From contig NC_134026.1 of NCBI RefSeq assembly GCF_964204645.1, positions 12,733,950 to 12,797,949 of the forward strand: 64,000 nucleotides of DNA. Reading direction: 5' to 3'. Position numbers and translations under genes: made by a program. The notes beneath the pieces were generated by a model. That model searched no databases. It was not told where the DNA came from and was given only the letters and a program-made list of their open reading frames with translations. Numbering within the stretch: the stretch's first letter is position 1; every line of letters starts with the position of its first letter. This document shows, in pieces, positions 1-36,317 of this stretch. This DNA comes from Tubulanus polymorphus (lineage: Eukaryota; Animalia; Nemertea).

Positions 1-665
1 ATCTCTGATGGCTCGGTCGACGGTTCCTCGGCAATTACCGGCAGCGACTCTGCAGACGACTTAGCGACGGATGTCGGAGACTGTATTGCTGACGTCTTTA
101 CACTAGTGGGCGGTTCGGTCGGTAGGCTATCGACGACGGTTGATAGTTTAACGCTTGCGACAGTCGGTGGATCATCGCTGAGGACGGGTGGAAGCTTCTC
201 CGTTATTGAAGGTGGAAAAACTTCCTCCATGGTGCCCGACATCTCTCTCATAATTCGGGTGACGACGTCGGAGGCCGATCACCCTTCCGATTGACAGTTG
301 GCGGGAGTGACCTCCATTGCCTGTTCTCTCGTCGAAGTTGCGGCCGGTTCGGGCGTCGACTTGCTCATCTTCTTCTAGTATTTCTTTTGACTCTGTTCTT
401 CGCGTTTAAACTTTCTCTTGCCGGATACCGCGGTGACCGTAGACGTGACGTTCGACTCGGACAAGACTTGTGCTGGCGGGTCTCGGTCCCACGAGTCTTC
501 CGCAACTTCGAGAATGCGCACTCTTTCCTCATGGTACTTGACGTGCCTGCGAGCCTTCAGCTTAGTGGCGAACTGCTTCCCACATTTCTCGCATTCGAAA
601 ACCTTTCCCTCGCGGGTCCGGCCTTTGCAATACCGATTGTGCGCGTGGACGTTTTCTTTGTCCAC
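1..665 (-). pseudogene. Gypsy accessory ORF downstream of pol with a C2H2 zinc finger and S/T/P-rich tail
   Basis: FECEKCGKQFATKLKARRHVKYH in ORF 375-665; the same frame continues through in-frame stops towards position 1. Confidence 0.6.
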
Positions 666-1502
666 TCTTCGCGCACAGTAGATACATTTAACTTTAGCTG
701 ATTTATCCCTACAAAATAAAACGGATAAAAACCATGAAGATTAATAATGTAGGCGACGCCTGGGCTAGCACCTGTCGCCATATCTATCAGGTGGTCTCGA
801 TGTACGCCCGAAAAATGTGGTTCTAAAATCTCTGAATAGTTGGGAGTCCTCAGGTCAGTTGCGGTTAGCTCAAGGTAAGGTTTCAGTCGGTCGAAATGCA
901 CGGTCATACGCTTGTTCGAATTAGGAAGCACTATAGTATAGACTACGTCGTTTATTATCTTGAAAATCTCGCATGGTCCTAAATCCGGTCGAATCATGTG
1001 TCGACGCTCGGTACGCCATCGTTAAGAATGGTAGCTGCTCGTCCCAGTCGTCCTGGTTTTTATTCACAAGCATGGCGAGCCCGTTCAACAGGGTGCGATT
1101 ATACCGCTCGACTAGTCCATCAGACTGCGGATGGTAGGCAGTAGTTCTAGTCTTAGGCCTACGCATTTCTAGCATGCCGCAAATTTCAGTCATTAGTTTT
1201 GACTGGAAATTAGACCATTGATCGGAGTGAAATTGTCTTGCTACTCCAAACCTACTTATAAATTCTCGGACGAGTGTTGCTGCTACAGTCTTGGCTTCCT
1301 GATTAGGTAGAGGATAGGCCTCTACCCAACGAGTAAAATAATCGGAGACAACTAAAATTACTGTGTTCCCGGCTTTCGTTTCGGGTAGCGGCCCCAAAAT
1401 ATCTAAAGCTATTCTTTCCATAGGTAGTCCGATGCGATAGTCTTTAAGTTTTGCTTTATTACTTCTAGGTGGACTCTTCCTGGTGGCACATAGGTCGCAC
1501 AC
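557..1502 (-). pseudogene. Gypsy integrase core and C-terminus (frameshifted)
   Basis: IALDILGPLP...FHSDQ...DGLVERYNRTL (D,D,E); VHFDRLKPY C-terminal motif in ORF 557-997. Confidence 0.92.
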
Positions 1503-2488
1503 CAGAGTTTGACATCGTCCCGAATTTCCGGCCAGAAATATCTTTTATGAATACTAGTGAGGGTCTTCTTGTAGCCAAAATGTCCAGCGGTTCTAGAGGC
1601 GTGAATCTCGATGAATACTTCGTGACGGTAAGTTTTAGGCAAACCTAACAACGTGGACGGTTCTAACCCTTGTCTTTCCTTGGTGATATACAGTACGCCG
1701 TCGACCAATCTTAATGGTTCCCACCGGGTTGCTAGAAATTTGCTGGTAGCGCCCTCACTCGCCACATCCTGCCAGCCTGGTCGGTTTTGGGACTTATACC
1801 GCTCTACAATCCATCTCAGATCAGGGTCGTTTGCTCGTGCTTGGCCTAGTTCTGTCGGCGACCATTTTGGCGCGCATGATAATTCAGTGGAACAGTCTCT
1901 GATAGCTCTCACCCGCTTGACGTGGCTGCATGGACTCTCGATTGTCTCATATCTCTCAGAGGCCCTTAAGCAATGCTGACATTCCCTACGACTCAGAGCA
2001 TCTGCGTTCGTATGAAGACGGCCGGGACGATGTTGAACCTTAAATTCATATTCTGACAGTAAGGTAATCCACCTGGCTATCTGTCCCTCCGGATCTTTAA
2101 AAGACATGAGCCAACGTAGGGAACCGTGGTCAGTGCGGAGCAGAAACTCTCTCCCTAATAAATAATGTCTAAAATGCTTGACGTACGTGACTACTGCTAA
2201 TAGCTCACGTCTCGTGACGCAATAATTTCGATCTTGTTTTCACAAGGTGCGACTTCCATAAGCGATTACTTTCTCTACCCCATCGTGTACTTGTGACAAA
2301 ACAGCCCCCAAGCCTACCCCACTAGCGTCTGTATCTAAAATAAACAGAGTATCCGGGAGTTGATACGCCAGTATTGGCGCTGTCATGAGCACGTTTTTCA
2401 ATTCCTCAAAAGCGTACTGACATTCCGTAGACCATTCAAATTTCCTTCCCTTCTCGATAATCTGTGGAGGGGTTTGCAATCGATGCAA
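1409..2488 (-). pseudogene. Gypsy RNase H, linker and integrase zinc-binding region (frameshifted)
   Basis: DTDASGVGLGAVLSQ; HRPGRLHTNADALSR; H..AGHFG...YFWP. Confidence 0.9.
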
Positions 2489-4775
2489 AATCCTGGCAAA
2501 AACTCCGGTAGTACGATGCTAAACCCAAAAATGATCTCACGTCGGTTTGACATCGCGGTACAGGCCAAGTCTTTATTGATTCTATTTTATCCGGATCGCA
2601 CGATACGCCGTCCTCGGAGACTACATGTCCTAAAAACGCAACTGATTTCTCAAAGAAGTGGCACTTCCTGGGTTTAAGTTTTAGATCAGATCTTCTAAGC
2701 CTTTCGAATACTTGGCGCAGGTTGTCCAAAGTCTCTTCAAAATTCTTTCCGAATACTATGATATCATCCAAATAAACTAAGCAAATCTCATACTGCAGGC
2801 CACAGAGAACCTGTTCCATGAGTCTTTCGAACGTCGCGCCGCTATTACATAACCCAAAAGGCATGTTTCGAAATTGAAATAGACCATCTCTCATGACAAA
2901 TGCGGATTTCTCTCTTGTAGATTCTGATAGCTCGACCTGCCAATAACCAGATGCGAGATCCATAGTCCAAAAATATCGAGAGCCAGAGAGAGAACGAATA
3001 GAGTCATCAATTCTGGGTAGGGGATAAGCATCTTTCATAGTGACATCATTCACACGCCGATAATCTAGGCAAAATCTAATTCCCCCGTCCTTCATTGACA
3101 CAAGAACTATCGGACTAGCCCACGGTGAAGTTGACGGTTCGACCACCCCGCGATCTAGCATCTCTTTGACTAGGCGACTAGCTACTTCTTGTCTTGCTGG
3201 TGGTAAGCGACGAGCCTTCTGTCTAACCGGCTTAGCGTCCCCTGTGTGTATATCATGCGTAATTCCCGGGGCTACACCTAAATCTGCGTCGGACCGAGCG
3301 AAGATGTCTCGATACTCTAGAATTAACTTTTCGACCTTTGACGCTTCGTCTGGTTGCAAATCTTTCGTGCTTCTCTCGACAAGATCATTTAAAAATTCGG
3401 GAGTCTCTTCACTTGGAGCACTGGGAGTATGCATGGCTCTCACATTACTGGGTTCCACTCTAACCACGGGTCTCAAATAGCCAAGGGATGTCCCCTTACA
3501 AACAGTAATCTTGTGTGGAGTAGGATTCAAAACTCTTGTGGGTAATATTAGATTCTCGGTGTCGACGAGACTTCTCGCTGTCAGAAATCGATGTTTGTGG
3601 CTAAACTCAGACGGTTCTATCATAGCCCACTTCCCGGAGTGGTGCTGTACATCAGTCGTTCCTTCCAGCACTTTTTCGCTGAAAGGTGGAATAACGACCC
3701 GTTGACGGCTTCTGACGTGAGTATTGTTCTTATCCAGCTGGCATTTCTTCCCGTAGATAATTTGTTCACCGTGGCACGTAATACTTTGCCTGGCTGGATG
3801 AATCTGGCAGTCATAGTGTGAAAGAAAATCTAAACCTAGGACAGTTTCATCTTCGATGTCAGCCACAGCGAACGGCCAGGGCATTACCTCACCGACCTCA
3901 AGTTTACCATATGTTTTCAGATGGGAATTACTGATATTGTACAGCTGTAAATTCGATTTTTCTAGATTCTCTTTTGATGCTGGGTGTAATTTCTCGAAAA
4001 CGCTTTTACTTAGAACTGAAACACACGCACCGGTATCGACTAAAAATTTGGTTTGTACACTATCAACTTTCCCGTTGATAATTATACTAGATACGGTGTT
4101 GCTGATCGCGCTCACAGCAACTCGTTCATCTGAGTGGGTTGGTGATGAGAGTTTGATTTTTAAGCTCTCCTCTGGCTTGACTCTTTGAGCCAGGGGTCGC
4201 CCGTTTCCCCGTCTCGGTCCTTCTCGGCAGTTTCTAGAGATGTGTCCTGCTTGACCACAACTATAACATACTATAGAATGATTGTCTCGACGAACGCTCT
4301 GTTGAGATTGAAGGCCTACCAACTGCTTCACCATTGTCGTTAACTCGGTCACCTGAGATCTCAATGTCTCAATTTGGTCATTCTCTTCTACTTTCGTTGC
4401 TCTTACAAACCCGTGGGAGCCACGCTCTCTATCTTCCTCCAATCTCTTAAACCCCTCTAGTTCTACGGCTAAACGGACTAACTCGTCGAGCGATTTACAA
4501 TGACTCTGATACAATTGCATACGCAGCTCTCTATCGTCGATCGCGTCTGTAAAATGAGTGCGGACCAAACGGTCTCTCTGAAATGGGTCTAAATCAGGAT
4601 AAGCCTGTACCGCAAGGGAAAGTAGCTCTTGCCCCAGTTCTCTTAGGGTTTCTGTCCTCTTACGCCTTCTGTTCTTAATTTCAGCTAAGAAGAGTTCAGA
4701 TTGATGGCCAAAACCAAATCTCGAGCCGAGTATACCGACTAACTCACCATAATCAAGCCGGCTTCGATGCGACAA
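2436..4775 (-). CDS. Gypsy Gag-protease-reverse transcriptase polyprotein fragment
   Basis: 779-aa ORF with CCHC knuckle, DTG protease, RT motifs (SPWASPIVLV, DLASGYWQV, MPFGLCN, YLDDIIV). Confidence 0.93.
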   Translation of the reverse strand: MSHRSRLDYGELVGILGSRFGFGHQSELFLAEIKNRRRKRTETLRELGQELLSLAVQAYPDLDPFQRDRLVRTHFTDAIDDRELRMQLYQSHCKSLDELVRLAVELEGFKRLEEDRERGSHGFVRATKVEENDQIETLRSQVTELTTMVKQLVGLQSQQSVRRDNHSIVCYSCGQAGHISRNCREGPRRGNGRPLAQRVKPEESLKIKLSSPTHSDERVAVSAISNTVSSIIINGKVDSVQTKFLVDTGACVSVLSKSVFEKLHPASKENLEKSNLQLYNISNSHLKTYGKLEVGEVMPWPFAVADIEDETVLGLDFLSHYDCQIHPARQSITCHGEQIIYGKKCQLDKNNTHVRSRQRVVIPPFSEKVLEGTTDVQHHSGKWAMIEPSEFSHKHRFLTARSLVDTENLILPTRVLNPTPHKITVCKGTSLGYLRPVVRVEPSNVRAMHTPSAPSEETPEFLNDLVERSTKDLQPDEASKVEKLILEYRDIFARSDADLGVAPGITHDIHTGDAKPVRQKARRLPPARQEVASRLVKEMLDRGVVEPSTSPWASPIVLVSMKDGGIRFCLDYRRVNDVTMKDAYPLPRIDDSIRSLSGSRYFWTMDLASGYWQVELSESTREKSAFVMRDGLFQFRNMPFGLCNSGATFERLMEQVLCGLQYEICLVYLDDIIVFGKNFEETLDNLRQVFERLRRSDLKLKPRKCHFFEKSVAFLGHVVSEDGVSCDPDKIESIKTWPVPRCQTDVRSFLGLASYYRSFCQDFASIANPSTDYREGKEI

Positions 4776-4783
4776 AGTGCAAG

Positions 4784-5333
4784 CTAATTGACGGGCTGGG
4801 CCTGGAAGGTGTACGAAAAGAAAATCTGCCTTGGATCCATCGTCCCAGCGGTTGATACGTGATACCGTCTCAAAAACTTAAATATAATCTCGCCAAGAAC
4901 CGTTACAGTCGAAGGTTTCGGGCTTGATTCTACATGCCGGGTTACGATCTTGAGCGAGGCGCTGACTCTCAAAATCAAAATTTGACCCCAAAGGAATTCG
5001 GTCAAGACGATCGCTCGTTTCGACATTGCGCTCGAAACGGTCTGCATAATGAGAACTCTGGTCTCCGGAGCTAACTCTACGAGGAAGCGTTGTCGTCTCA
5101 AACACCTCTGAACCTTTCTCGAGTGCATCAGTCGCGGTAACTGCTTCCGTTACGGCTGGGGAATCTCCTACGACTGTCGTCTCTCTGTCTAAGGGCTGAC
5201 GACGGGTAAGATTCCCATCTCTTCGAGATTGCGATACCTCGTCGCTAAGACTTCGGGGTTGTCTACGAGCATTACTCCTAGTCGAAGGTCTACCTCTCAG
5301 ATCACCATCCACGTCAACGGATTGAGTACTCAT
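4784..5333 (-). pseudogene. Gypsy Gag N-terminus
   Basis: IKPETFDCNGSWRDY gag-like motif, followed by a stop and frameshift into the main ORF. Confidence 0.75.
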
Positions 5334-5510
5334 CTTTTCTAAGTCACTAAAATTCGAATAATAATCTTAATCATCATGTACGAATTCTGAACGAGTCTAT
5401 GTTCCACTCAGTGCCAAAATAATAAAGATAAAAGAAAGGTTATGCTAAAATTCTCGTTGAGTTTCTTCTGTGCAGGTCTATCAACTAATCGATCAAATCA
5501 AATCAATTTC

Positions 5511-5668: not shown

Positions 5669-5747
5669 CTTAAAATATTCATATATATGAATAACATATA
5701 AATGAATAACTTCTAAAATCAATTTTAATAAAAAATTTGATATTTAA

Positions 5748-8700
5748 ATGGAAGCAAATAAGAAGTACTACTGTCCAATATGTAAAATCAATAAAGATAA
5801 ATCCCAAAAACCAAGACACAATAAAACTAGAACACATTTAGAAAATAAATTTAAGTTAGAATATAAAGATGATATATTAGAAACTAAATTAGATGAATTA
5901 AAGAATGAAAAAGAAACATACAAATGTGATTCATGTAATCAATCATTCAGTGATAAAAGATATTATAAAGAACATTTAAAATCTAAAAGTCATATTAGAA
6001 ATATGAATAATGATATTTTAGGTGAAGATTATTCTGATAAAGATAATGATAAGAAACCGAAGACAATTAAAAGAATAAAAAATAAATTAAACAATAAAAG
6101 ACCATACATGGAAGATGTAACAAATTATATTAATTCATTAGATAATAAAGAAGAAATAGAGATAACTGAAGTATTTAAAAGTGATATTGGTCCAGCAGCT
6201 ATTGAGTTTAAATTCCATAAAGGAAAAACATTAGAAGAAAATAAAAAACATTTGGAAAATATGAAAAATATTATAAAAATAATCACAGATGTTGGTATAC
6301 CCTAAAATTAGCATATCAGTTAAAGTAAAGTTTATAAAATCTGAAGATAAACCAATATATAATATAAATTCCCATTCACAACATATTATTTCAAAACAAC
6401 ATATAGATGAAAAATGAGATAAATGTTATAATGAAGTAAAAACTAAAATAGAAGAGAAATATTTTGAAGGATCAGGTTTAATATTCGATGAAATAATATT
6501 TATGACTTTACATGTTTATAGTTACAACACAAAATATAATAAGTTAACTAAATCAAAACCAATTGATGAAAATAATTCATCATATTATAAAGATAATAAT
6601 ATAAATGGATCAAGTTATATTAAACAAATGCTGTTATAAACGTATAAAATGAAGATAATAAATGTTTTCTATGGACAATTATAAGTTGCTTACATCCAGT
6701 TGAAGATTACAATAAACATACTTATAGATTAACAAATTATATACAATTTGAAAATAATTATAAGATAGACAATTATCCAGTTAGAATTAAAGATATCCCA
6801 AAAATAGAAAGATAAAATAATCTAAGAATAAATGTATTTGATTTAATCAAATTACCAAATACAAAAGGTGATAAAATTGAACACTATACATTAGAACCTT
6901 TGTATTTATCAAAAGATTATGATTCAAATGGTGTTATAGATATATTATATTATGAAAATCATTATATGTGGATAAAACAAATCGATTTATTTTTTAGAAC
7001 AGAAAATAACCACAATAAAATATATCTATGTAGAAAATGTTTAATAAATAGATTCAGTAATGAAAGCACATTATTAAATCATAAACAATTATGTGATAAT
7101 CATGATTATTGTAAATTATTTTTACCAAATGAAAAGGATAAAATATTAGAATTAAAAAAATATGATTACAAGAATAAAGTACCATTTGTAATATATGGAG
7201 ATTTTGAATCACTAAATAAAGAATTAACTTATCAAGATAGAAAAGAAATATATTATAAAAGAAAGAAATTAAATTCTAATGAAAATGATGTAATTGATTA
7301 TTCAGATCCCCTAATAACAAATACTATTAAAAAGATTCATCAATCAGCAGCAGCTTTCGGGTTATATATAAAATCTGATTATACCGAACTAATTAAAAGT
7401 GAATATTATAATTATAGAAATGAAAATGTTATCAATCATTTTTGTGACTTATTAATTGAGGATGAAATCAAATTTAGTAAAGTATTAGATACAAATAAAG
7501 AAATTATAATGACAGAAGAAGATAAAGAAGAATTTGAGTTTGCTGATAAATGTTATTATTGTGAAAAACTATTTAATTATAAAGATAAAAAAGTGAGAGA
7601 CCATGATCAATTGAATGGAAATTTTAGAGGCGCGGCGCACGAGAATTGTAACTTACAAGCTAAGAAAATCAATTTTGTTCCAGTAATATTTCATAATTTA
7701 TCAGGGTATGATGCACATTTATTCATCAAGCAACTGTGCCATAAGATAGAAGAAATCAATAATCAAATAGAAAGATTAAATTCATATAGATCAAAAGATA
7801 AAATACCAACTTATAAATTTAAAATGTTAGCTAAAACATCTGAGGATTATATATCTTTCCAATTTGGGTGTCTAAGATTTATAGATTCATATAGGTTTCT
7901 AGGTAGTTCATTAGATAATTTATCAAAATCATTAGTTGATGATGAATTAAAAATATTAAAGCAACAATATCCAAATAATGATGATTTTCAATTAATGAGA
8001 TATAAAGGCGCAATTCCATATTCATTTTACAAATCGCATTATGATTTCAATATAACTGAATTATTAAAAGAATGATTTTATGATGAATTAAAAAATGAAT
8101 ATGTTAAAGATAAAGTCTGTAATAGAACATTGAATATTTGGAATCATTTTGGAATGAAAAATCATGGACAATTAGTAGATTTATATTTAAAATCAGATGT
8201 ATTATTATTAACTGATATATTCGAAAGGTTTAGAGATGTAAACCTAGAATATTTTAATATTGATCCTTGCCATTGTTATTCTAGGCCAGATTTAACTTGG
8301 GATTTTGGTTTAAGATTTACAGATATAAAAATGGATTTGTTGACAAATATAGATCAATTATTATTATTTGAAAAATCTATAAGAGGAGGAGTTTCAGGTG
8401 TATTAGGTGATAGATATTTCAATGTAAATGATAACCTTGGATATAAGTTATTATATATAGATGCAAATAATCTATATGGTTGGGCAATGATGGAACCTCA
8501 ACCTTATGGAGTATTTGAAATAACAGAAGTTTTACAGCATGAAAATAATGATAAATTTGATTAGAAGAAAAGAATTCTAGATATTGCAGATGATTCAGAG
8601 ACTGGTTACTTTTTTGTTGTATATTTAGAATATCCTGAACATATTAAATTTAAATCTAGAAATCTAGCTTACTGCCCCGAACATAAAACTGTAACACATG

Positions 8701-9735
8701 AAGATTTATCAAATTACCAAAAAAGAATTAAACCTGAAAATCATATTCATACAGAAAAGTTAATGGTAACTCAGGAAGATAAATATAATTATGTAGTACA
8801 TTATAGAATGTTGAAGTTTTATTTGAATCAAGGAATGGTTCTAAAAAAGTACATAGATATATTTCATTTAGTCAATCTAAATGGTTAGAAAAATATATAG
8901 ATTTTAACACCAAACAGAGAACTAAAGCTAAAACTGATTTCGAGAAAGATTTCTTCTAACTAATGAATAATGCATTCTATGGTAAGACTTGTGAAAATAT
9001 CAGAAATAGAAATGATATTGAGTTAGTTAGCAATGGCAAAAGGATAAGGCATTTACAAACATATCCTAAGTTCATAGGTAACAGAATATTTGATGAAAAT
9101 CAAAGAAATTTGATGAAATATCAAAGCTATTGATGTATGAATTCTATTATAACGTGTTACAACCTCATTTTGGAGAAAAGCATATAGAAATCTTATATTT
9201 TGATACTGACAGTTACATATTAAAGATAAAAACTAATAACATAACAGATGATTTAAAAACATTAAAACATCATTTTGATTTTAGTAATTATCCTAAAGAT
9301 CATAAATTGTTTAGCAATGATAATAAAAAGGTGCCTGGTAAATTCAAAGATGAATTAGGAGGTGAAGAAATGATAGAATTTATAGGTATTCGATCTAAAA
9401 TGTATAGTTATAGAACTAAAACTCATGAAGCTAAAAAGTTAAAAGGAATAACCAAAAGTGTAGTAGAAAAGAATATTAATTTCAAAGATTACATCAATTG
9501 TATATTCAATGAAGAAGTTAGAAAACATAAGATGAAATGTTTAAGATCTGAGTACCACGAGATGTTTATTGAAGAGATAGAAGAGGTTAGTTTGAACCCA
9601 TTCGATGATAAAAGATATATTTTAGATGATGGTATACACACAGTTGCTTACGGTTGCAATTTAGATGAATACTTAAAATTTAAAAGAGAAGAAACAAAAG
9701 AGAATGAGATTATGAAAAGAATTCTAGCGTGTTAA
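5748..9735 (+). pseudogene. Protein-primed family B DNA polymerase with N-terminal zinc fingers and endonuclease VII-like insert; multiple stops/frameshifts
   Basis: C2H2 fingers, EGSG, NEDNKCF, KVRDHD..GNFRGAAH..CN, IFHNLSGYD, DSYRFL, YIDANNLYGWAM, LMNNAFYGK, YFDTDS and KKLKGI across ORFs 5748-6305, 6900-8075, 8130-8564 and 9130-9735. Confidence 0.93.
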
Positions 9736-9753
9736 TCAAATTTTAATAAAATT

Positions 9754-10107
9754 ATGTATTATAAACAAGCACACAGTGAGAACAACAAATCATTTCTAGA
9801 TAGAATAGAAGATACTTCAAATGTCAAATCAGTAGATTATAAATTTAAGAAGTTAAAAGAATTAATAATCCATAAGAAATATCTAATTAAAAATATTGAT
9901 ACAGTTACTAACAAATATGGAGATAAATTAGTTATCCACTTAGAATATGAATGATTAAAGGGAAATACATATAAATTCAGAAAATATTTACCAGATAGAT
10001 TTCATAGATTATCAAGTGACGATTTAGAAGAATTATGTTCAGGTGATTTCTATTTCATATACAAAGGTAAGAATGAAAAGGGGCACCATGAATTAGATTT
10101 CGAATAA
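9754..10107 (+). pseudogene. Small Polinton hypothetical protein (one internal stop)
   Basis: Frame continues past TGA at 9952-9954 to TAA at 10105-10107. Confidence 0.5.
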
Positions 10108-10124
10108 GAAAATATGTAAAATAA

Positions 10125-10550
10125 ATGGTAGAATTAAAAGAATATAGAATATTTGTTGATTCTAGAAAACTGTTAAATTCTAAATCACACAATTTACTAG
10201 TACAATTAGATAGAGAAGTTAAGAATTGTGTTGATTTAAAATTAGTAAATGTAAGTTTATGTAATTCTTTTTATAATATATCGGATAAAACTTTTGAACA
10301 TAGAGGGTTTATGATTTATATGAGAAATAAAGATAAATGGTTTCATCTATTTTTAAAACCAGGATTATATAATTTCGAATCATTAGCGCAGGAAATTAAT
10401 AGAAGAGCTCGGTTGAAAATCGGGGGAACTTCTGTATTTGAAATTAAATTTATTAAAATTGATAGTACTAATACAATAAGAATAAAGATAGCTAATGAAC
10501 AACATAAATTTATGGTAAACAAACCAATGGCTAAAATGTTAGGAATTAAA
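10125..10550 (+). pseudogene. Putative minor capsid (penton-like) protein, truncated by LINE insertion
   Basis: IFVDSR...VKNCVDLKLVNVSLCNSFYNI...PGLYNFESLAQEIN resembles penton/minor capsid N-termini; TAAATG start; composition changes at ~10551. Confidence 0.55.
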
Positions 10551-10601
10551 CCGCTTACAGCCCCCTTCGCGCTGAGAAATATCTTATTCCCAGTCAGCAA
10601 A

Positions 10602-11295
10602 GGGTCTGACTATTTCAGATGGCTGGGAGTCACCTTCATTTCGGTCAACGAATTATACATCTAGACTTCACCTACGATGTAACGTAGCACAATACACTGG
10701 GTTCGAATCCCGTAAATCGTTCCACGAACTCGGTCCCTCAGCGCAATTCGTTCAAACAAAGTTCCCATTTTTTGTCTGAATGAAATTCAATTAAATGACC
10801 AATAGAAACTTATTTCCAATCAGGAGATCTGCTATCCAAAAGGAAATTCCTTAAAAAGTCCTCGTAAATTACATTCAACTTGAAGAAAAATATAAACTAA
10901 AACCATATATATGTACCATACAAACTTTTTTATTTCACAAATTTCTAAATTTGAATAAACACCACATTGTTCTGATATAAATCAACTTACACAATTTTAA
11001 AATTTGAATATACATGTACATAGTTCTGATTGACTTGGAAATTTGAAAATTGGATTACAACACGGCCTTACAGCATTTTAATAGTGCATACGGTTCAGAT
11101 GATGTTAGGTGACATTGAGTACAATATGGTGAATATTACAAGTCATTGATATACAAATATGGTGATTGTCAAACATTTCTCTACAACGATCGGGTTACTA
11201 AGATATAAAAAATTATTATGTGTAAAAAGTTAAAAAGCAAACCAAAATGGCCAAATTAGCTCACCTGTTGCCGAAGTGTGCAGAAAATAAATGTT

Positions 11296-12385: not shown

Positions 12386-12614
12386 GTCAGCAAAGACAGG
12401 TTTTAAAGACGCCCGCGATTGTAGTCGCCGAGAAGTACGCTCCGTCAAAAAGACAACAAAAACAACTAACGAAAACACGTAAGATCGTCACCGATAGTAG
12501 TATACGAAGCATAAACATACGGAGAATCTAATGAAGCCAATCTGTAAGTTCTCTACTCGTTAGAATTGTTAACTTTACCGTTGAAAGGAAAACAGCAAAG
12601 TTTCGAAATTCAAA

Positions 12615-14753
12615 ATGGCGCCACCCTCTCCTACTACACAACAGCACAGCGGAAGCGCTACTTCCGCCCTACTGTCGTTGTTGGACCTAGAAGAGATGCC
12701 AACGTCACAGGATGTTCTACGGCTGCAGTACTTAACTCTTGCTCGTGAAATACACCCAGATAGGAATAATTCTCTGGACTCGACCTCTAAATTCCAAAAA
12801 TTGAATGCAGCGTATATTCAATTGCGAGAAATATTGCATAACAGTCAAATTTCATCACCGTCAGGCAGTGACAAACGTCGAAGATCCTTCCGCGAGGACG
12901 ATAACGTCGGTATTCCAAACAAAAGTATAAACATTAGTGAGAAATCGCAGTCACTCGTTATTGATCTTTCGCATTGCAAGGACAAAATTAAGCTATTTCA
13001 CTCGGAATTTAGATCGCAGTATGGAAACCCTGTTGATAGAGGGGATCATGGCGTACATTTCAGCGGTGTGTATGTTGACACTCAAAACATTGCATTGGGA
13101 ACGGTACACATTACCTTGTATAAGGGATCAACTAAAAAATCTCCGAAACTACACATTCAGGGTTCCTCCTACTTAGTTTGGCTAAGCGAGGCCTTACCTC
13201 AGTTGTTGGAGAGAATCTTCAAGAAAGTTCCATCGCAATCTGCGTTATCCGTGAGTTCTTCAAAGCAGAATGACAAAAAATCCTGCTGCTCCGCATGCAC
13301 CGGGCCGGACACGAACAGCATGATCCAATGTTCACTATGCGAAGGTTGGACCCATAACAAATGCACCAGCCTGTCGAAAAATGAACTAGCACTTGCGACA
13401 TCAGATGTTAGAGAGCTCTATATATGCAACCCCTGCGGCACCGCACTTACAGTAGCGCCGGCCAGCGATGCTAGTTCGGGGCACGCGTGCGCATCGAACA
13501 AGACAGAAGCACAAATCCAAACTGAGCCACAACCTTCGAATACTCGTACCGCTAGTTGTCAAACCGATATGACAGTAATTGACGGTGAAGACATAATGAA
13601 TATGTTTAACTCGATGCAACAATCAACGGTAAACTTATTGCAGCAGGTAAATCAATGCTCACAGTCTTCTCAAATAAAACAGCTGCAACAAAAACTTGAA
13701 GATTGCACAAAACGCGTAGACCACATCAACGAACTAATGGTCGCAGTGAGTGAAACGGCTAAGACAACTGAACATTTAAAGAAAATCTCGGACCGGAGTG
13801 TTAACCGCACACGCGATATCTTACAGAAAGTCTGTAACACAGAAACTAGACTCGATAACCTGCAAGATATAGCCTCGAAATCGCTTGAGGCCATCCAAAC
13901 GTTTCAGTCACAAGGAACCGACCTTGATGACAAATACTCTATGATATCATCGACGTCGTCACTAGGATTATACGGGGACAACGAAGAATCTAAATCGAAG
14001 CCAGCCGGAAAAACTGTGCATAATCTAACGCGCCGCAAAAGAGATAAGTACCGCGAGGTTCACAACAATACGTATTACAATCAGCTAGAACGCCCCTTGT
14101 ACAGTGAGAGGCGCCATGGACTGGAAAATAGATGTGACAAATATCCGCCGGAAATATCTAGAGAGAGCAACCGTGATATCCGTGACAACACAAATCCGCC
14201 AGAACGCGTGCGTCGCCAAAATAATGTGTTTATCATCGGAGACTCGAACATCCGATATATCGACACTAACCGCTCTGTGAACGATCAATGTCAGGTTGAA
14301 AAATTTACGGCGTATACAATTAAAGAAGCAGGGCAAGTTGTCGATAGAATTAGAAGCGAAAACCCTGCATGCATCGTTTTGCATGTTGGTAATAACGATA
14401 TCCGAAACCTACATTGTGCCAATACCTGTGTAGATCGCTTTGTTAGCCTTGTGAACAAAATTAAGTTCTACTTCCCAGATACACGATTGGTTATTTCCCA
14501 GATACCGCCTAGATTCGACCATCAAAGTCTTGGTGACCAGTCTGCAACCTTTAACTATACCGTCGAATCGCTTGCAGCTGCAGATAAAAATGCTTACGTT
14601 ATTCGTCACGACAACCGGAATGACCGACGTCGATACTACAGAGACGACCTCCACATTAACAACAAGAACGGTATAAGGCAATTTGCGAACAATCTAGCCA
14701 CTGGTGTAAGACGGGCTCTAAAATTATTTACCCGTCCAAGAATACATAATTAA
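12615..14753 (+). CDS. LINE ORF1p: J-domain (DnaJ, HPD) + PHD finger + coiled coil + SGNH esterase
   Basis: LRLQYLTLAREIHPDRN..KFQKLNAAY; CSAC...MIQCSLCEGWTHNKC...YICNPC; IIGDSN, LHVGNND, DDLH; uninterrupted 712 aa. Confidence 0.9.
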   Translation: MAPPSPTTQQHSGSATSALLSLLDLEEMPTSQDVLRLQYLTLAREIHPDRNNSLDSTSKFQKLNAAYIQLREILHNSQISSPSGSDKRRRSFREDDNVGIPNKSINISEKSQSLVIDLSHCKDKIKLFHSEFRSQYGNPVDRGDHGVHFSGVYVDTQNIALGTVHITLYKGSTKKSPKLHIQGSSYLVWLSEALPQLLERIFKKVPSQSALSVSSSKQNDKKSCCSACTGPDTNSMIQCSLCEGWTHNKCTSLSKNELALATSDVRELYICNPCGTALTVAPASDASSGHACASNKTEAQIQTEPQPSNTRTASCQTDMTVIDGEDIMNMFNSMQQSTVNLLQQVNQCSQSSQIKQLQQKLEDCTKRVDHINELMVAVSETAKTTEHLKKISDRSVNRTRDILQKVCNTETRLDNLQDIASKSLEAIQTFQSQGTDLDDKYSMISSTSSLGLYGDNEESKSKPAGKTVHNLTRRKRDKYREVHNNTYYNQLERPLYSERRHGLENRCDKYPPEISRESNRDIRDNTNPPERVRRQNNVFIIGDSNIRYIDTNRSVNDQCQVEKFTAYTIKEAGQVVDRIRSENPACIVLHVGNNDIRNLHCANTCVDRFVSLVNKIKFYFPDTRLVISQIPPRFDHQSLGDQSATFNYTVESLAAADKNAYVIRHDNRNDRRRYYRDDLHINNKNGIRQFANNLATGVRRALKLFTRPRIHN

Positions 14754-14829
14754 TTTAATAACCACTACTGAAATTTGTTTATAACACTCCTCCGGTTAGG
14801 AAGAAGTCTCCTGCCTGAACGGAATAATA

Positions 14830-17800
14830 ATGCTCCTACTTAATATATGTGCATGGAATATACATGGTCTCTCTAGCCAGTACATGGATAAATTAAATGA
14901 TGTATGTTTCCAAAACCTGGTAAAACCATATGATATTGTATGTCTTACGGAAACCCATACCGGTGAAGATTTTATCCCCCAACTTGACGGCTACTTTACG
15001 ATCCAGAGAACGAAACCCACATATTAATAGGAACTACGGCGGTATTGCAATTCTATGTAGAGATCATCTAAAAAAGCAGATTAGAGTGACCGAGAGGCCC
15101 TCCTCAGAAATAATCTGGCTAAAATTCACAGAATATCCTAAATCTAGACCTATCTTCATTGCTATATGTTACCTCAGCCCTCTAAATTCATCATTTGGTG
15201 TAAAAAAACTCAGAGGAAAACTTTGGGATATTGGAGCGTGGATGTGTAAAGTACTCAAGCTTGGGGGAAGTGTTGCTTATAGGTGACCTGAACGCAAGAA
15301 CAGGATTGAAAAATGAATGTACCAATATTGATGAAAATGATAGAAAGTATCTGCCAGGAATATCAGAAATGAATTTGTCTATTCAGAATATCTCCCCACG
15401 GAGAAATAAGGATTGCACTACTAATAAAATGGGAAGAAACATTATCAATTTGTGTGAAGGCAATAATCTATGTATTTTAAATGGTCGTTGTCCTGGTGAC
15501 AGTTTTGGGGAATATACATGCCATCAATGGAACGGCAGTAGTGTGGTTGACTTAGCTATAGCCAATGAAAGCCTATATCCACGCATTAAATATTTCTATG
15601 TGCACCATCTGACTGAGCTATCTGATCATTGCGCTATTTCACTCGGCTTTGAATACAAAAGAGATGTACCTCCTAGACCCAAGAATTCCTCGGTTGGTCA
15701 GTCTAATTTTTATAACAAGCAATTTTCTAAACTCAAAGATGTAGAAGAGGTCAACTCTTACCTTTCTAATCCGGAAATATTGTGTAAATTAGATCAATTT
15801 CTTAAGGGTGAAATATGGACTACTGAAGGTGTAAATATCGAAACGTTAAATGAAATAGTGAATAATTTTGTATCCATATTGAATACCAATGTCAAAACAA
15901 AGGTTCAGAATCCTAAGGTGCAGAAGAATACCGGTAAGAAGAGTTGGTTTGATAAGGAATGTATGTCGTTGAAAAAGAACTTACAGTTAACAGGCAGAAA
16001 ATTACGTTATGAAACAGATGGGGAGAAAAGGCAGAAATATTTCATTTTAAAAAAACGATATAAGAAAACTCTTAGGACAAAACGTGCAATATTCAGACAA
16101 TCTGAGCTGTCAAAATTAACTTCGCTAAAATGTAGACCCAGGGAGTTTTGGAAAATTATCAAAAATCTAAACAAGGATGGTGAAAAACCAGTCAATGACA
16201 ATTATACCCCTAATTCTACGGAATTTATCAACCACTTTAAGTCGCTGAACGCTGCCAAAATTTGTCATGAAAATGTTGTCTAAGACAACTTACCTGAAGC
16301 CGACAATGTTTTTACAGAATTAGACTACCGGATTACTGAAGAAGAAATATCCAATGCTCTGTCTAAACTTAAAAACAGTAGATCCCAGGGCTTGATGGAA
16401 TAACTAACGAGCTACTTAAATATGGCAAAGACTACATTATCAAACCACTTGCCAAATTGTTCAATTTCGTTTACTCAAACGGTATATTCCCGACATCTTG
16501 GTCCGAAGGTCTTATTGTACCTCTGCTAAAAAAAGGCGACAGAACACTGCCAGATAATTATAGAGGAATCACACTGGGTAGCTGTTTGGGTAAAGCTTTT
16601 TGCCAGGTTCTCAATAACAGACTTAGTAATTACCTTATAAATTAAAACCTAATAACCCCCAACCAGATTGGTTTTATGCCAAAAAGTAGAACTACAGATC
16701 ACATGTTAACTTTAAAAAAACTCGTAGATTCCAAATTGTCCACCTCGGGTAAATTGTATTGTTGCTTCATAGATCTCAGGAAGGCATTTGACTCTGTATG
16801 GCATCAAGGTCTCATACATAAACTAAGAAAATCTGAAATTGGAAGTCACTTCAATAAAATAATTAAAAGTATGTATGAAAACATGACATGCCGTCTAAAA
16901 CTAGGACAATTTTCTGCATCTGATAAATTTGAGTCTTGCATTGGAGTACAGCAGGGGAACGTGTTGAGCCCCATGCTTTTTAACCTTTATGTGAATGATA
17001 TTGTATCGATTTTTGATGAAGAATGTGATCCAACCACCATTGGGAAATTACTTGTAAATTGTTTGTTGTACGCTGACGATTTGGTACTCGTGTCTAATTC
17101 GGAAAGGGGTCTCCAGAAATGTCTCGATAAACTGTCAAAATACTGTGAAACATGGAAATTAGAAATTAACACTGAAAAGAGCAAATGCATGATTTTCAAC
17201 AAGAAAGGACAAATGTCGATTCATTCTAAATTTTACCTAGGCAATCAAGAAGTTGATATTGTAAAAGAGTATAAATATCTTGGTTTGATGTTTTGTTCAA
17301 CAGGTAGTTTCCAAAGGGCTAGAGAGGAACTATTCAAGTCAGCGAGTAGGGCTATGTTTGCAGTACAGAGGTTAATAGGTAGCCAAAATTGCCCCCCTGA
17401 TATATCGCTCCAATTATTTGACACTCTAGTAACCCCTATACTCCTATATGGATGCGAAATATGGTTACCTAAGAGAAACTTAGCAAAACGAATCCATAAG
17501 AATATGGACAAAAAACCTTTTTACCTAGAAGAATCATTCGAAAAAGACGACCTAAACAAACTAATGGTTAGATTCTGTAAATATATTTTGATGGTCAATA
17601 AAAAAGCTACCAACTTAGCGGTTCTGGGCGAGTTGGGTAGACTACCTTTGTATATTAATGCATTTGTACATATTGTCAAATATTATAAACACCTGGTTGG
17701 CTCTGTAAATAGTATGGTAAATATTGTGCTAATGAACTTAGATGTAAATAGTGACTGGAATACCTTCCTGAAATGTATCATGACATTAACTAACTGTGAG

Positions 17801-18298
17801 GATTTACTAGACAAAGGTGGATTCATCTCATTTACTGACATCAGAAACTTCAAGCATATACTCCAGGAACGCTACAAACTATTTTGGAAATCTAAATTAC
17901 ATTCATACAACAAATTGAACCTATACAATCAATATAAATTTGACTTTACTTTGGAATACTACTTACTTTCGGATATACCTAAATCAAATAAAAGAGCTAT
18001 CTCAAAATTAAGAATTAGCGCACACAAGTTAGCCATTGAAACAGGAAGGTATACCAGTACACCAAAAGAACAAAGACTTTGCACAAGTTGCAATGTAATA
18101 GAAGATGAGCTACATTTTCTACTTGAATGTACAAAGTTACAGGAGCTCAGGAAAGACCTTTTGACGGAATTTGAAAAATATTATCCTCTTCATGAAAATG
18201 AGATCAATTCTGAAAAATTCAAAATTATCATGTGTTCCCCTAAACTAACCAAAGCTCTCGGAAAGTTCACCGCATTGGGATTCGAACAACGTATGTAA
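14830..18298 (+). pseudogene. LINE ORF2p: APE endonuclease + reverse transcriptase + C-terminal CCHC, five lesions
   Basis: WNIHGL, LTETH, GDLNAR, SDH; YRGITL, FIDLRKAFDSV, GVQQGNVLSP, YADD, YLG; LRISAHKLAIETGRY..C..C..EDELHF..C; frameshifts near 15015, 15205 and 16388, stops at 16281 and 16643. Confidence 0.93.
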
Positions 18299-18461
18299 AT
18301 AATCGATCACTGTTATTGTTATTTAAAAAAAAAAATGTTTATTCATATTTTTCAACTGCGTTTTTAGTATGATTTCCTATAAATTTTGTATTTTACCCTT
18401 TTCTCATCTTTATTGTAAAAAAAAAAAAAACCTGACTAGTATTTTATATTACTCAAAGGAC

Positions 18462-18495
18462 AATAAAGATATATTGAATTGAATTGAATTGAATT
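18462..18495 (+). terminator. LINE polyadenylation signal and (TTGAA)n tail
   Basis: AATAAA followed by TTGAATTGAATTGAATTGAATT. Confidence 0.8.
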
Positions 18496-24028: not shown

Positions 24029-24460
24029 ATGGATGATAAAATTGATGGTGTTAATATTATTCCCCATGATATAAATAAAACTTAATTAAAAACATATTTA
24101 GAAATACAAATATTAAAATGTGAAAGTGACTTAACGATAAAAAAGAAAAGATATTTAAAAAGTAAAATTATATATTATTTTATTATAAGTGGTTCAGTTA
24201 CAATTAGTTCTGTAATAACATTTCTAGCAATATTCAGTCCATTAACATCTTTAGCTATATCAATTGGTGTGCTAGGATTATCATCAAGTGTTTTAACTGG
24301 TATAAGTTCAAAATTAAATATAAAAAGTAATAAAGAAAAAATTAAAACTAATATTTAAAAAATTAATAAATCAAAAAACACATTAGATTATATAATGAGT
24401 TTAAATGGTCATATAACAGTTGAAGAACAAGATAAATTATTAAAAGAATTAATAAATTAA
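24029..24460 (+). pseudogene. Polinton two-TM membrane protein (internal stops)
   Basis: TAAATG start at 24029; IIYYFIISGSVTISSVITFLAIFSPLTSLAISIGVLGLSSSVL read through two stops. Confidence 0.55.
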
Positions 24461-24479
24461 TAATTTTTTAATTGTATAA

Positions 24480-25792
24480 ATGGGGTTTCCAAAAGCTTTC
24501 CAATATAATAAATCAATTAAATATAATATTCCGGCAGTAGATTTTAATAAAAATATTACATATAGAAATTTAGTTTTAAATTCATTAACTAATTTAGAAA
24601 TTTACGTTACTGAAACACAGTTTTTTATTTCTAAAATGGAAAATATATTTGATACATATGAAGTTACTTTTACTCGAGATGAATATCATATATATAAAGT
24701 AAAATATAATATGAAATATTCGCAGAATCAATTAAATTTTGCTGTTTATTGTGCAACAACTGGTTGTGGTGTAAGTTGGAATGATCATTTAAATAACTTA
24801 GATAAAAATTTGAATTATTCTGATTTAAAATTAATTCACACAATATTTAGATTTCACACATATTTTCAATTCAGAATGATATTAATTGAATTAGAATGTC
24901 CTTTACCCGGATCTAAATATTTTAAAGAATTGGATAATAATATTAATCTATCTAAGTTTTAATTTAAGTAGTAAAATATGTAATGAATTTAATATAAATA
25001 TTAATACCGATCTTAGAGCGCATGGTAAATAACAGGGTATTGGTGAACAGTATGAAATAAAAAGAATTGATTATATGCATAGAATTGGGGCTTATATATA
25101 ATTATAAAATTGATAATAATAATGGTTGGATTAATTTCATTTTAGAAAATAGTGAAGGTTTTACAAAATCAGGCATACAAAGAATGAATCAATCAATTAG
25201 AACTTATATGATATGTATTTTAGGTGCGCAAGTTGAAACAAGATCACCAATAGTTGGAAATGATAACACTTCATTTGATACACAGAAACAATTCAAAGTA
25301 TTATTTGAAGATTCCATTCATAATGATAAGAATAGATCGATTCCAGAAAACATTGTAAGATATCAAAATTATTTAGATAAATCACATATTAGATTAAATT
25401 ATTGTATAGGCCCTAATTTATTAATTATTTCTAATGATTTAGTATTAAAGATGGGAAATATTATTGGTTATAATAATTTGATTAAAACTGCAATAATAAA
25501 TAATAAGTTTGGATTGAATGATATAAATAAAAAGATTTTCACTGCTCCAAAATTAATGGAAGGTGAAAAAATTAAAAAACATATTCAATCAACAGAAACT
25601 AAAACTAAGAATATTAAATTGGATAATGATTCAAAAATAAAAGATTACAATACTACAGAAAATATAAAAACTGATAATATTCAACATGACATATTTAAAA
25701 CTGATCATGATAATAAATCCCATGAAAATGCTAAATTAGCTCTAACTTGTATAGGAATTGTAATCGGAGGAATATTATATTTTAAATTTTAA
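24480..25792 (+). pseudogene. Polinton hypothetical (probably virion) protein, split into ORFs 24480-24962 and 25067-25792
   Basis: QNQLNFAVYCATTGCGVS, FRFHTYFQ, GFTKSG..RMNQSIRTYMICILGAQ; C-terminal TM. Confidence 0.65.
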
Positions 25793-25802
25793 TTTTTTTA
25801 TT

Positions 25803-27288
25803 ATGCAAATGGAAGTAGAAGGTGGAGAAGATTATGAAATGGGAGAAATGGGAAATAATAATGATGGGTATATTGATGATGATTATAATGATGCAGAAAC
25901 TAATATTGATAATGATGATGGATCAGCGCTTAATTCTATTTTAGCAGAGAGCTTTGGTTCTAAAGGCCAATCAACAGATGAATTTGATAGAAGAACTAAA
26001 TCGAGAATAAATCCTGAAAATGAAAATCCAGATTTAGTAAAAAAAAGATTAGAATATAATGAATATATTTATAAATTCAAACTTGTATTTGAAAGATCTG
26101 GGTATAGTATAAATGATAGAGGCGCCAGACTTTTAGTAACAGAATTAAAATCTTTAGATGGTGAATATTACTATCATTTGAAAGATGATTATTATATTAA
26201 TATCACTTATAAAAATCAAAATAAAATATTAGCAGAATCAACTTCGAGTATTTTGGGCCATCTAGAATTAAAAGAATAAGTAATAATAGTAATGAAATAG
26301 AAAATGTTACACAAGAAGAAATAAATCAAAATAAAAGAGTATTTAAGACTATTTTAGTATTTTAGAAAGAATAAATGAATTATTTGTAACAATCAATAAT
26401 AATTTAGAAACAGAAACAACTTCTGAACAGAATATAACTTCCAAAACTAGTAAACTTAAATTAAACGAAGTTCAAACTGAAAAACTTTTACCGAATGGAT
26501 TACTTTATGCAACAGATCAAGAAATAGAAGCTTTAAGTATGTTTTCTGAAAAAACAATTAGAGAAATAATAAGTATACGAAATGAAGCCGATAAAATTGC
26601 ACGCAAAAAAAATATTAGATATAATAAAATTAAACCTTTAGAAAATAAATTATTTGACACCTGAAAAGAATAAGAACAATTAAAATTAGATAGAGAATTT
26701 AAAGTTATTGAAGAAATTGAATTTAAAAAAAGAAATGCATATTTAGAAAAAGAAATTGATGATTTAGAATATAACATAGAATTTCAGAAAGAAAAAATGA
26801 AATTATTATCAAAATCATATGATTATTGTATTAATGGATTAAAAGTTGTTGTTGAAGAGTTAATAATAAAACCAAATTCTAAAATATCATTGAAAGACAG
26901 AATAAAATTATTATTTAAGTTTGAAGGTATAACAATTCTTTCAATTGTAACAGCTGTAACTATGGTATTTACAACAATTGGTTTAGCTATATCAAATTCA
27001 TTAAAATCTACACAAATTCCGAATAAACCGGATAAACCACCTCCAAATAATAATTCTATACAAGATAAAGTTAAGGATGGTTTAAAACAATTAGCAAAAT
27101 ATTTATGGGAACTATCTAAAAAATCTGCTGCAGCTTTACCTGGAGTTATTGCATCGATTGTTGGTTTTGTTTTGAAATCTGCTGGGAATATTCTTAACTT
27201 TGCTGCTGAAAATATTATTTTATTTTTAATTACAGTTGTAAGTGCTATTATTTTTGGGTTAGTGAATATGATAAAATTAAATAATTAA
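25803..27288 (+). pseudogene. Polinton coiled-coil protein with C-terminal hydrophobic/amphipathic helices
   Basis: Acidic N-terminus, coiled-coil middle with stops, C-terminal ORF 26797-27288 (EGITILSIVTAV..., ALPGVIASIVGFVLK...). Confidence 0.65.
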
Positions 27289-27304
27289 TTTTTTTGTTAA
27301 ATAA

Positions 27305-28501
27305 ATGAGCGGGAGTTATATAAATCCTTCTAAGAATCCTAGAATATCTAATGCTATTAAAGCAGAAAGATCTCATCATATAATTACTCATAATCCTTCT
27401 AATATTAATCCTGATGAAACTATATATGTTAGAATCCCGAGATTAAATCAAAAATACTTTTTATGTTCCAAATAGTATTTATTTGTCAGCTGATATAAAT
27501 GCAACTGGTAATAATAATAATTATGTTGTTGATAATGTTGGAAGATATTTGATTAAAAAATTAACTATAAAGATTGGTCCAGAAACAGTTTTCTCATTAG
27601 ATGATTATAATTTATTTATGCATTATAAAGATTTATGGTTAACAAAAGAAAAAAGAAAACCAAAATAAATTAAGATCAGGAGCTAATGACGCAATAGTAA
27701 CTCGTACCGCAGATAATTTGATCAAAAAGATTTATGGAAGCAAACATATAATTCCATTAGATTTTGAATTGATAAATAATAATGCACCTTTATATAAATA
27801 CGCAATTCAAGAAGATATCCTATTCGAAATAACATTTGCTCCTGTTAATGAAATTGTATTATCTAGCGTTGTAAAAGATATGGGTTATAAATTATCGAAT
27901 ATATGCTTAGAATATGACACAGTAACTGATGAAAATATTTCAAGTATAATTCAAACTCAATACAATCAAGGATTTTCATTATTATATGATTATATTGATA
28001 AATTTAAAACTGTAACTATTGATGCAATTAATGCAATTATTAATGAGAATATTAACTTAAGAAGATCTATTAAAGGTATATTAATGTTTTTTACCATTGC
28101 AACATATTCTAATGGCACAATACAGGTCGATAATTATTATAATCCTGAAATAACAAAAGTAGAAATAACTACCGAAGGTATAGCAAATAAAATATTTTGT
28201 CAAGGAATGAGAATGATAGATCAGTGGCCAGAAATTATAAAACATTTTATGAATGAAAACATCTGAAAATTGTTATATTAATCAAATTGATTATTATACC
28301 GGTAATAAATATGCATTATGGTTAGATTTTAGAACAACAGAGGATAATTCATTACATGGTTCTGGAAAAAAACACTAAAGATGGAATACAATTATTCATG
28401 ATAAAGAATAAAGGAATCAAAAATTTTAAAATGCACATTTATATTATATCTGATGGCAATTAAATATCATAAATTCTCAATTGAATAGTGTTATGTATTG
28501 A
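27305..28501 (+). pseudogene. Major capsid protein (double jelly-roll, Polinton/adintovirus type), frameshifted
   Basis: THNPSNINPDETIYVRIPRL, VDNVGRYLIKKL, IPLDFE, LSNICLEYD, YYNPEITKVEIT, KYALWLDFRT..DNSLHGSG. Confidence 0.75.
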
Positions 28502-28533
28502 AATTTTAATTTTAATAAAAAAAATTATAATAA

Positions 28534-29684: not shown

Positions 29685-30027
29685 TTATTATAAAACTATT
29701 TATATATCTATGTACTAGACGTACGTAAGAATCTTGGTAAGAATCTTGGCAAGAATTCTTACTCGTACGTCTAGTACATAGATATATAAACAGTTTCAGA
29801 ATAATTATTCTAAATATAAATTATATATATATTTGTTCCCCTGTGTAAACATAAATTATAAACATAAATTATAAACATAGTTTTAATATATAATTTATTC
29901 ATTATTATATATTTCATTAAATAATTTATATATCTATGTACTAGATGTACGAGTAAGAATCCAAGAATTCTTACTAAGATTCTTACCAAGATTCTTACTC
30001 GTACGTCTAGTGCATAGATGTATAAAT
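29676..30027. terminator. Pair of long hairpins (29676-29813 and 29924-30027) at the convergent junction of Polinton gene blocks
   Basis: Stem TTTATATATCTATGTACTAGAYGTACG/CGTACGTCTAGTRCATAGATRTATAAA occurs twice; loops built from AAGAATCTTGG/CCAAGATTCTT units; terminator role inferred. Confidence 0.7.
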
Positions 30028-30049
30028 AGTTTCTATAATCTTGCAAATT

Positions 30050-30625: not shown

Positions 30626-30656
30626 ATTATGCGGTTCAAATATAAATAAATCTTTA

Positions 30657-36301: not shown

Positions 36302-36317
36302 TTTTATTAACGTAATA

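Follow-up and report, generated by a model that had tools for sequence, protein, structure and literature searches.

An HPD-bearing J-domain at the N-terminus of a LINE ORF1 protein in the nemertean Tubulanus polymorphus

The element and its ORF1 J-domain

The 64,000-nucleotide stretch of the Tubulanus polymorphus genome analysed here (contig NC_134026.1, forward-strand positions 12,733,950 to 12,797,949; hereafter the window) holds a full-length long interspersed nuclear element (LINE), a retrotransposon lacking long terminal repeats (non-LTR) and of the APE-RT type. Its first open reading frame (ORF1) is uninterrupted and begins with a J-domain that carries the HPD (His-Pro-Asp) motif (Table 1). 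The arrangement is that of an APE-type LINE, with ORF1 followed by an ORF2 for endonuclease and reverse transcriptase (RT), a simple-repeat tail at the 3′ end and dispersed copies that have a common 5′ end. A long ORF1 with a coiled coil and an SGNH esterase is a trait of the RTEX clade, not exclusive to it since CR1/L2 elements have esterase ORF1s too, and the element is probably RTEX-like.

The ORF1 N-terminus is confirmed as a genuine J-domain with an HPD motif. An initial annotation made from the letters of the window had proposed J-domain helices I–III from a peptide corresponding to residues 18–70 of ORF1, starting at 12666, and had made the proposal depend on a DnaJ profile match and on HPD conservation among relatives. 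The Pfam DnaJ family (PF00226) matches residues 23–71 at 33.8 bits (E 3.7e-8), above its gathering score of 27.8, and scores 29.6 bits when the whole of ORF1 is scanned. Searched against PDB sequences, the N-terminal 82 residues gave 33 matches at E ≤ 1, nearly all to named J-domain proteins, with Thermus DnaJ the best (E 1.3e-4) and SV40 large T at E 0.089. An AlphaFold2 model has helices at residues 12–22, 32–46 and 56–79, with a predicted local distance difference test score (pLDDT) of 86–96 in ten-residue blocks over residues 11–80, and sets the HPD between helices II and III, in the loop that joins this antiparallel pair. Foldseek returned J-domain matches at probability 1.00 for the multi-domain window model, none of them at E ≤ 0.001, and zero matches at that threshold for either model searched. 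The HPD sits in a loop at the surface and is known to serve in activating Hsp70. The Pfam match spans model positions 6–54 of 63 and thus leaves helix IV unmatched, helix III extending to residue 79; many relatives, unlike the window, match the model to position 63. Some functional J-domains also lack helix IV. The window J-domain keeps R36, R44, the HPD, R50 and F60, and has L40, T41 and E45 at positions that are mostly basic in relatives. A chance occurrence of HPD was rejected, as profile, fold and family all agree.

The initial annotation had also assigned the J-domain to a mobile element, and this is borne out by read and contig sets (X1, X2 and X5) that carry the same species label as the window. 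X1 and X2 contigs and X5 reads place the 5′ end of the element at about 12410–12415. One X1 contig (record 1; 5,887 bases) and one X2 contig (record 10; 393 bases) match the window from 12415 with zero differences and carry other sequence upstream of it, which gives at least one further flank. X5 depth over the bin holding the J-domain is about 34, the same as over the remaining ORF1 (30–48). Because the 5′ end recurs in other contigs, of which one or more have a different flank, and because of this X5 depth, the J-domain moves together with the element; the window sequence of the domain is that of a young family and not the decay of a single copy. The same 5′ end lies beside other flanks, on which grounds the idea that the insertion site holds a DnaJ exon of the host was rejected. 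In three X5 reads, 12409 is joined to sequence that matches the window from 18495 on, the junction predicted where a copy of the flanking repeat lacks the insert. No target-site duplication of at least 9 bp was found in the ranges compared. X1 depth over the J-domain bin is 34.5 versus 90–125 in the remaining ORF1, about a third, and this may be compatible with copies truncated at the 5′ end or bearing a different one.

In a three-frame translation, no fewer than three frameshifts and two in-frame stops break ORF2 in the window copy, and the stop at 16281–16283 is absent from 24 of 24 X5 reads covering that position. Its APE-RT has 603 relatives at E ≤ 1e-30, the best about 40% identical, and no fusion of a J-domain to an RT occurs among the 120 long ORF2 relatives listed. 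X5 depth is about 30–48 over ORF1 versus 12–35 over ORF2, and read joints skip 14940–16212 and 17513–18026. Taken together, the intact ORF1, an ORF2 with at least five breaks, the skipping joints and the ORF1 depth surplus suggest non-autonomous copies that retain ORF1.

The proposed in-frame fusion of the J-domain to a PHD finger, a coiled coil and an SGNH esterase likewise held, with a PHD match above its cut-off, weak coil matches, and an esterase identified by its motifs and a Pfam match below cut-off. The latter is to Lipase_GDSL_2 over residues 573–683 (28.2 bits, E 3.2e-6; cut-off 32.9), and the motifs are FIIGDSN with the GDS serine, HVGNND with the block III asparagine and DDLHI with DxxH. 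At the GDS position many relatives have TSS, GNS or TDS instead. A Pfam scan of the window ORF1 detected no RRM or CCHC knuckle, and NADAR is absent from it.

Directly behind the J-domain lies an alpha/beta domain, unmentioned in the initial annotation, which resembles TBP-like and KA1 folds and is referred to here as the TBP-like domain. A model of the domain from a relative (P0002; pLDDT 89) aligns with the N-terminal domain of RNase H3 (3vn5) at Z 7.7 (rmsd 2.3, 69 residues aligned), with 4py5, solved with an RNA/DNA hybrid, at Z 6.4, and with KA1 domains at Z 6.2–6.9, including METTL16 on U6 snRNA (6.2–6.4); a CYTH-type chain scores as high as the TBP-like matches (Z 8.4). The DUF3378 and RnlA profiles each match 5 of 37 members weakly, the best E for DUF3378 being 0.012. 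Against PDB profiles, the TBP-like alignment gave weak matches to Tctex and to nothing else (E about 0.02). As RRM and CCHC were undetected in ORF1, the TBP-like domain is, on this modelled fold, the best candidate nucleic-acid binder of the window protein. A TBP-like domain is also found in ORF1-like proteins without a J-domain (P0087, P0108), and could be an ORF1 module of general occurrence that has no name as yet.

Table 1. Positions of the LINE, its ORF1 domains and neighbouring remnants in the window
Feature	Position (residues)	Strand	Basis or remark
Full-length LINE (APE-RT non-LTR retrotransposon)	12410..18495	+	Host site is a high-copy repeat; read joints and depth steps at both ends
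5′ untranslated region	12410..12614	+	Inferred 5′ end to first ORF1 ATG
ORF1, 712 aa, uninterrupted	12615..14753	+	ORF translation
J-domain helices I–III	12648..12851 (aa 12–79)	+	Pfam, PDB sequence matches, AlphaFold2 model
HPD motif	12753..12761 (aa 47–49)	+	ORF translation
TBP/KA1-like alpha/beta domain	12927..13229 (aa 105–205)	+	Family alignment, P0002 model; no Pfam family above cut-off
PHD finger	13287..13436 (aa 225–274)	+	Pfam PF00628 26.2 bits, cut-off 24; Pygo PHD structural matches
Probable coiled coil	13602..13904 (about aa 330–430)	+	Weak coil-family matches, aa 325–455
SGNH esterase	14220..14729 (about aa 536–705)	+	GDS serine 544 at 14244–14246; DDLH present
ORF2: APE endonuclease, RT, C-terminal Cys/His motif	14830..18298	+	Pfam Exo_endo_phos_2 and RVT_1; three-frame translation
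3′ untranslated region	18299..18495	+	AATAAA 18462–18467; (ATTGA)4.6 tail 18473–18495
DNA_pol_B_2	8076–8564		Maverick/Polinton-like remnant
A32 ATPase	30050–30661		Maverick/Polinton-like remnant
Integrase with chromo-like domain	30657–31745		Maverick/Polinton-like remnant

Elsewhere in the window, AT-rich Maverick/Polinton-like remnants occupy 5700–11000 and 24400–33600. A young BEL/Pao LTR retrotransposon lies at 35874–42705, with LTRs 99.8% identical and two long overlapping ORFs, and a Gypsy-type LTR retrotransposon remnant on the reverse strand at 557–5366 encodes CCHC, protease, RT, RNase H and integrase. A stop-free frame of 610 residues at 61647–63479 (forward strand) has zero Pfam matches above cut-off, and tandem arrays lie at 51735–52717 and 55937–56585, the second with a period of about 146 bases.

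The ORF1 family and conservation of the HPD motif

Among representatives of 50%-identity clusters, a phmmer search with residues 1–282 of ORF1 found 108 relatives at E ≤ 0.001. With full-length ORF1, a word-based search returned zero relatives, and the ESM Atlas gave no usable match. Counting the window protein, 93 of 109 proteins have the TBP-like domain; in 76 of the 93 it is preceded by at least 69 residues, and the HPD is present in 66 of those 76. The N-terminal alignment comprises 83 rows, some of them near-duplicates, after inclusion of nine proteins from a search with the TBP-like domain only and removal of rows starting inside that domain. The HPD is intact in 69 of the 83 rows, the window included, so that the second test set for the J-domain by the initial annotation also came out in its favour. 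Leaving aside an amphioxus-type clade of nine rows and a gene-model chimera (P0075), the count is 69 of 73, and in the four exceptions, each a single tip, the motif is damaged (HLD twice, YHD and HPV). The HPD is among the best-kept J-domain positions (86–87%) in proteins about 30% identical elsewhere. Lysine or arginine takes up 72% of rows at position 36, 78% at 40, 71% at 44 and 87% at 50, and F60 is kept in 90%.

The nine HPD-less rows (P0052, P0069, P0070, P0071, P0104, P0144, P0145, P0147 and P0149) form one clade with support 98/87 in a tree of the TBP-like domain only (102 columns for 81 rows, with many forks left unresolved), and the named members are all Branchiostoma. In this clade a longer basic loop replaces the HPD and J-like helices are kept, at 30–35 bits in Pfam. 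Three further rows on the tree lack a J-domain. Members of the amphioxus-type clade that are long enough keep the esterase GDS, at which many HPD-bearers have one of the substitutions given above; a trade-off between the HPD and esterase activities is possible from these sequences.

The J-domain is better conserved than any other part, with a median pairwise identity of 40%, against 30% in the TBP-like domain and 10% in the linker. Distances in the two domains are correlated (Mantel rho 0.58 over 64 rows, a value reached in 0 of 999 permutations; 0.43 in deep pairs), and the nearest neighbour in one agrees with that in the other for 41 of 64 rows, versus about five expected. This co-divergence fits vertical inheritance over repeated fresh capture, and repeated recent capture of the J-domain was rejected on it. 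The alignments thus point to one old capture kept by selection. The search with the TBP-like domain only returned 17 proteins, 14 of them with PF00226, and one of the three without it clusters with a J-bearing protein. The pair of J-domain and TBP-like domain defines a large, deep family, and the pairing persists across PHD-SGNH, PHD-SGNH-NADAR and C2H2 architectures. NADAR occurs before or after the esterase in J-bearing relatives P0011, P0040, P0148 and P0159, and a NADAR-like sequence recognised by eye directly follows the TBP-like domain at L001:1075-1902. A second architecture, with J-domain, TBP-like domain, C2H2 fingers and coiled coil, is seen in P0067, P0089, P0093, P0094, P0101 and P0164, which gave no PHD or esterase matches.

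Several observations indicate that the J-bearing relatives are probably LINE ORF1s too. Domain scans covered 87 of the 108, the 21 omitted being PHD-only matches, ordinary DnaJ proteins and short fragments, and DnaJ and GDSL_2 occur together, which is the ORF1 layout, in 17 of the 87. Clusters mix whole and shortened copies on several megabase contigs (cluster 8 has nine members of 235–816 residues), many other relatives lie on contigs of 5–9 kb, about the length of a LINE, and in amphioxus, copies turn up on many different scaffolds as fused parts of gene models that are otherwise unrelated. Searches of viral contigs and genome contigs for the DNA context of relatives confirmed nothing. The opposite view holds that most relatives are host genes for J-proteins or copies that have been domesticated, and that the LINE in the window made an isolated capture. 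It draws on the fact that ORF2 context was obtained for zero relatives. The shared layout, the mixed clusters and the scattered amphioxus copies all speak against it, as does the fit of the relatives' layout to published RTEX_BF ORF1 coordinates, and we regard it as very improbable.

Proposed role of the J-domain

LINE biology has yet to settle how the coat of ORF1 protein (ORF1p) comes off or is remodelled before the ORF2 protein (ORF2p) copies the RNA. Conservation of the HPD would most simply reflect continued Hsp70 activation across the family, and we hold this to be very probable because the motif is kept among proteins so divergent elsewhere; for the window copy our confidence is somewhat lower because its helix II is less basic. 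The HPD-less amphioxus-type clade implies that such activation would not be universal. A link of mobilisation to stress, which the initial annotation raised as a possibility, would be speculation on these data. We favour, with moderate confidence, a model in which the ORF1p J-domain would recruit and activate host cytosolic Hsc70 on the element's own ribonucleoprotein (RNP), where Hsc70 would remodel or strip the ORF1p coat. ORF1p would oligomerise through its coiled coil and coat its own mRNA, with the TBP-like domain as probable nucleic-acid binder. The adjacent J-domain would then trigger ATP hydrolysis by Hsc70, which would clamp a nearby RNP protein much as it does when auxilin and Hsc70 strip clathrin coats (PMC7396710, passages covered). 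Loosening of the coat or condensate would allow ORF2p to load on the RNA or to start target-primed reverse transcription. As has been proposed for other ORF1 proteins, the PHD finger may contact chromatin and the esterase membranes. The RNP coat is favoured as client because the putative RNA-binding domain is the J-domain's neighbour in all architectures seen.

Several points weigh against this model. Most LINEs have no J-domain. That of the window has drifted, with a DnaJ score below the approximately 40–84 bits of most relatives, and is basic at three of seven helix-II and loop positions, which we take to belong to the Hsp70 interface, where 59 of 69 rows have at least four, mostly four to five. 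HPD-less members of the amphioxus-type clade occur as dispersed copies of at least 90% identity, so that mobility in that clade is independent of the HPD. The first search query held the J-domain and the second used an alignment from its matches, both of which favour J-bearers. The TBP-like fold match (Z 7.7) is under the tool's threshold of 8 for a clear match, in a range where scores are called common. An ORF2 behind a J-bearing ORF1 is seen in the window only, two relative loci from metagenome contigs (1.9 and 2.0 kb) being too short to show one.

The same HPD and J-domain conservation would apply if Hsc70 were recruited chiefly to fold or activate the ORF2p RT in cis, with the coat not the client. 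ORF1p and ORF2p reside in one RNP, as established for L1. Hepadnavirus RT offers a precedent, as it strictly needs chaperone activation, for which the Hsp70 system alone suffices (PMC2094093). The ORF2 of the window is, however, an ordinary APE-RT with hundreds of relatives and no mark of chaperone dependence, and the X5 depth surplus of ORF1 together with the ORF2-skipping joints implies that ORF1 is kept without a full ORF2. We therefore rank activation of ORF2p behind the coat and consider it unlikely, if the foremost of the alternatives. Next to it stands a role independent of Hsp70, at least in the window lineage, in which the J-domain would be a helical hairpin for interaction or oligomerisation, or a decoy that damps host Hsp70. 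The amphioxus-type clade, with its J-like helices and no HPD, would fit such a role, as would L40, T41 and E45 in the window. Retention of an established Hsp70-activating loop in proteins so divergent elsewhere counts against it, and the window itself has kept R36, R44, R50 and F60 along with the HPD; such a role seems improbable.

Ranked behind both, and unlikely in our estimation, is an action on chromatin, whereby the PHD finger would dock ORF1p on nucleosomes, and Hsc70 would relax histones or silencing complexes, either at the target site or at the promoter of the element. J-domain and PHD finger do share one protein, and J-proteins are reported to act on histones or remodellers, as with DNAJC9 (PMC11775587) and, in two 2026 preprints, plant PICKLE complexes. 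What constantly adjoins the J-domain is nevertheless the TBP-like domain and not the PHD finger; in some members C2H2 fingers take the place of the PHD finger, or the TBP-like domain is directly followed by NADAR.

An extension of the coat model, which we offer tentatively as doubtful, is that an old and widespread animal LINE lineage encodes an Hsp70 co-chaperone of its own within a J-domain and RNA/DNA-hybrid-binding cassette, which would grip the RNA or nascent RNA:cDNA hybrid and bring Hsc70 to uncoat ORF1p in step with reverse transcription. Such a cassette, if real, would be the first ATP-driven device for uncoating that a retrotransposon encodes, and would give direct access to the way in which ORF1p comes off the RNA. 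With an Hsp70 switch built into a LINE family, the coat-removal step would become addressable by one point mutation, with the HPD-less amphioxus-type clade as a natural control. The findings would also extend J-domain piracy from viruses to transposons and add a probable nucleic-acid-binding ORF1 module, the predicted TBP/KA1-like domain. In marine invertebrates, some gene models named as J domain-containing are probably ORF1s of transposons, and DnaJ family counts that include them would be inflated; C3YEN2 of Branchiostoma floridae, for example, is automatically annotated as a 'J domain-containing protein' and carries no link to transposons.

Comparison with known systems

The nearest described elements are the RTEX LINEs (RTEX-n_BF, RTEX-1_SK and RTEX-n_NV) of Schneider et al. 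2013 (PMC3905857), whose ORF1 combines a coiled coil with an SGNH esterase. In the parts of that paper covered, including its Table S1, the coiled coil spans about residues 270–460 and the esterase starts at 470–550, compared with about 330–430 and 536 in the window, and the APE-RT ORF2, microsatellite tail and amphioxus relatives are shared. Unlike the window protein, the RTEX ORF1 has no domain described there in its first 270 residues, and a term search of the text available found no mention of DnaJ, J-domain or Hsp70. When the Table S1 residue labels were compared with 165 proteins, amphioxus relatives included, no RTEX entry agreed at all four positions. In CR1/L2 elements, ORF1 types III (PHD) and IV (esterase) are exchangeable modules (Metcalfe and Casane 2014, PMC4120745). 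That survey, of the Jockey superfamily only, has PHD and esterase as in the window and no J-domain among its ORF1 domains; in the passages covered the lone 'dnaj' string is a reference-line artefact, and no TBP-like domain appears. NADAR-bearing retrotransposons, namely Ectocarpus Gypsy and oyster Tx1 ORF1 (PMC12477816, passages covered), resemble the J-bearing LINE family in having captured an accessory domain, one that the window ORF1 itself does not have; a term search of that text found no mention of DnaJ. Term searches found no relevant DnaJ mention in the available main text of PMC4120745, PMC3905857, PMC11203168, PMC5408684 and PMC12477816. No paper describing a J-domain in a LINE ORF1 was found in the literature, a search outside which lie Repbase and Repbase Reports, which may annotate RTEX ORF1.

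The TBP-like domain (residues 105–205) has a fold likeness to the N-terminal TBP-like domain of RNase H3 (DUF3378) and to the KA1 domains of METTL16 and TUT1, at no more than 16% identity. In its overall design the window ORF1 resembles class C J-proteins such as auxilin and the polyomavirus T antigens, in which a J-domain with HPD is fused to client-targeting domains. In the T antigens an N-terminal J-domain serves a genetic parasite. Unlike auxilin and the T antigens, the window J-domain stands on the RNP protein of a retrotransposon. The J-bearing ORF1 is probably a new form of the esterase-type, probably RTEX-like, LINE ORF1.
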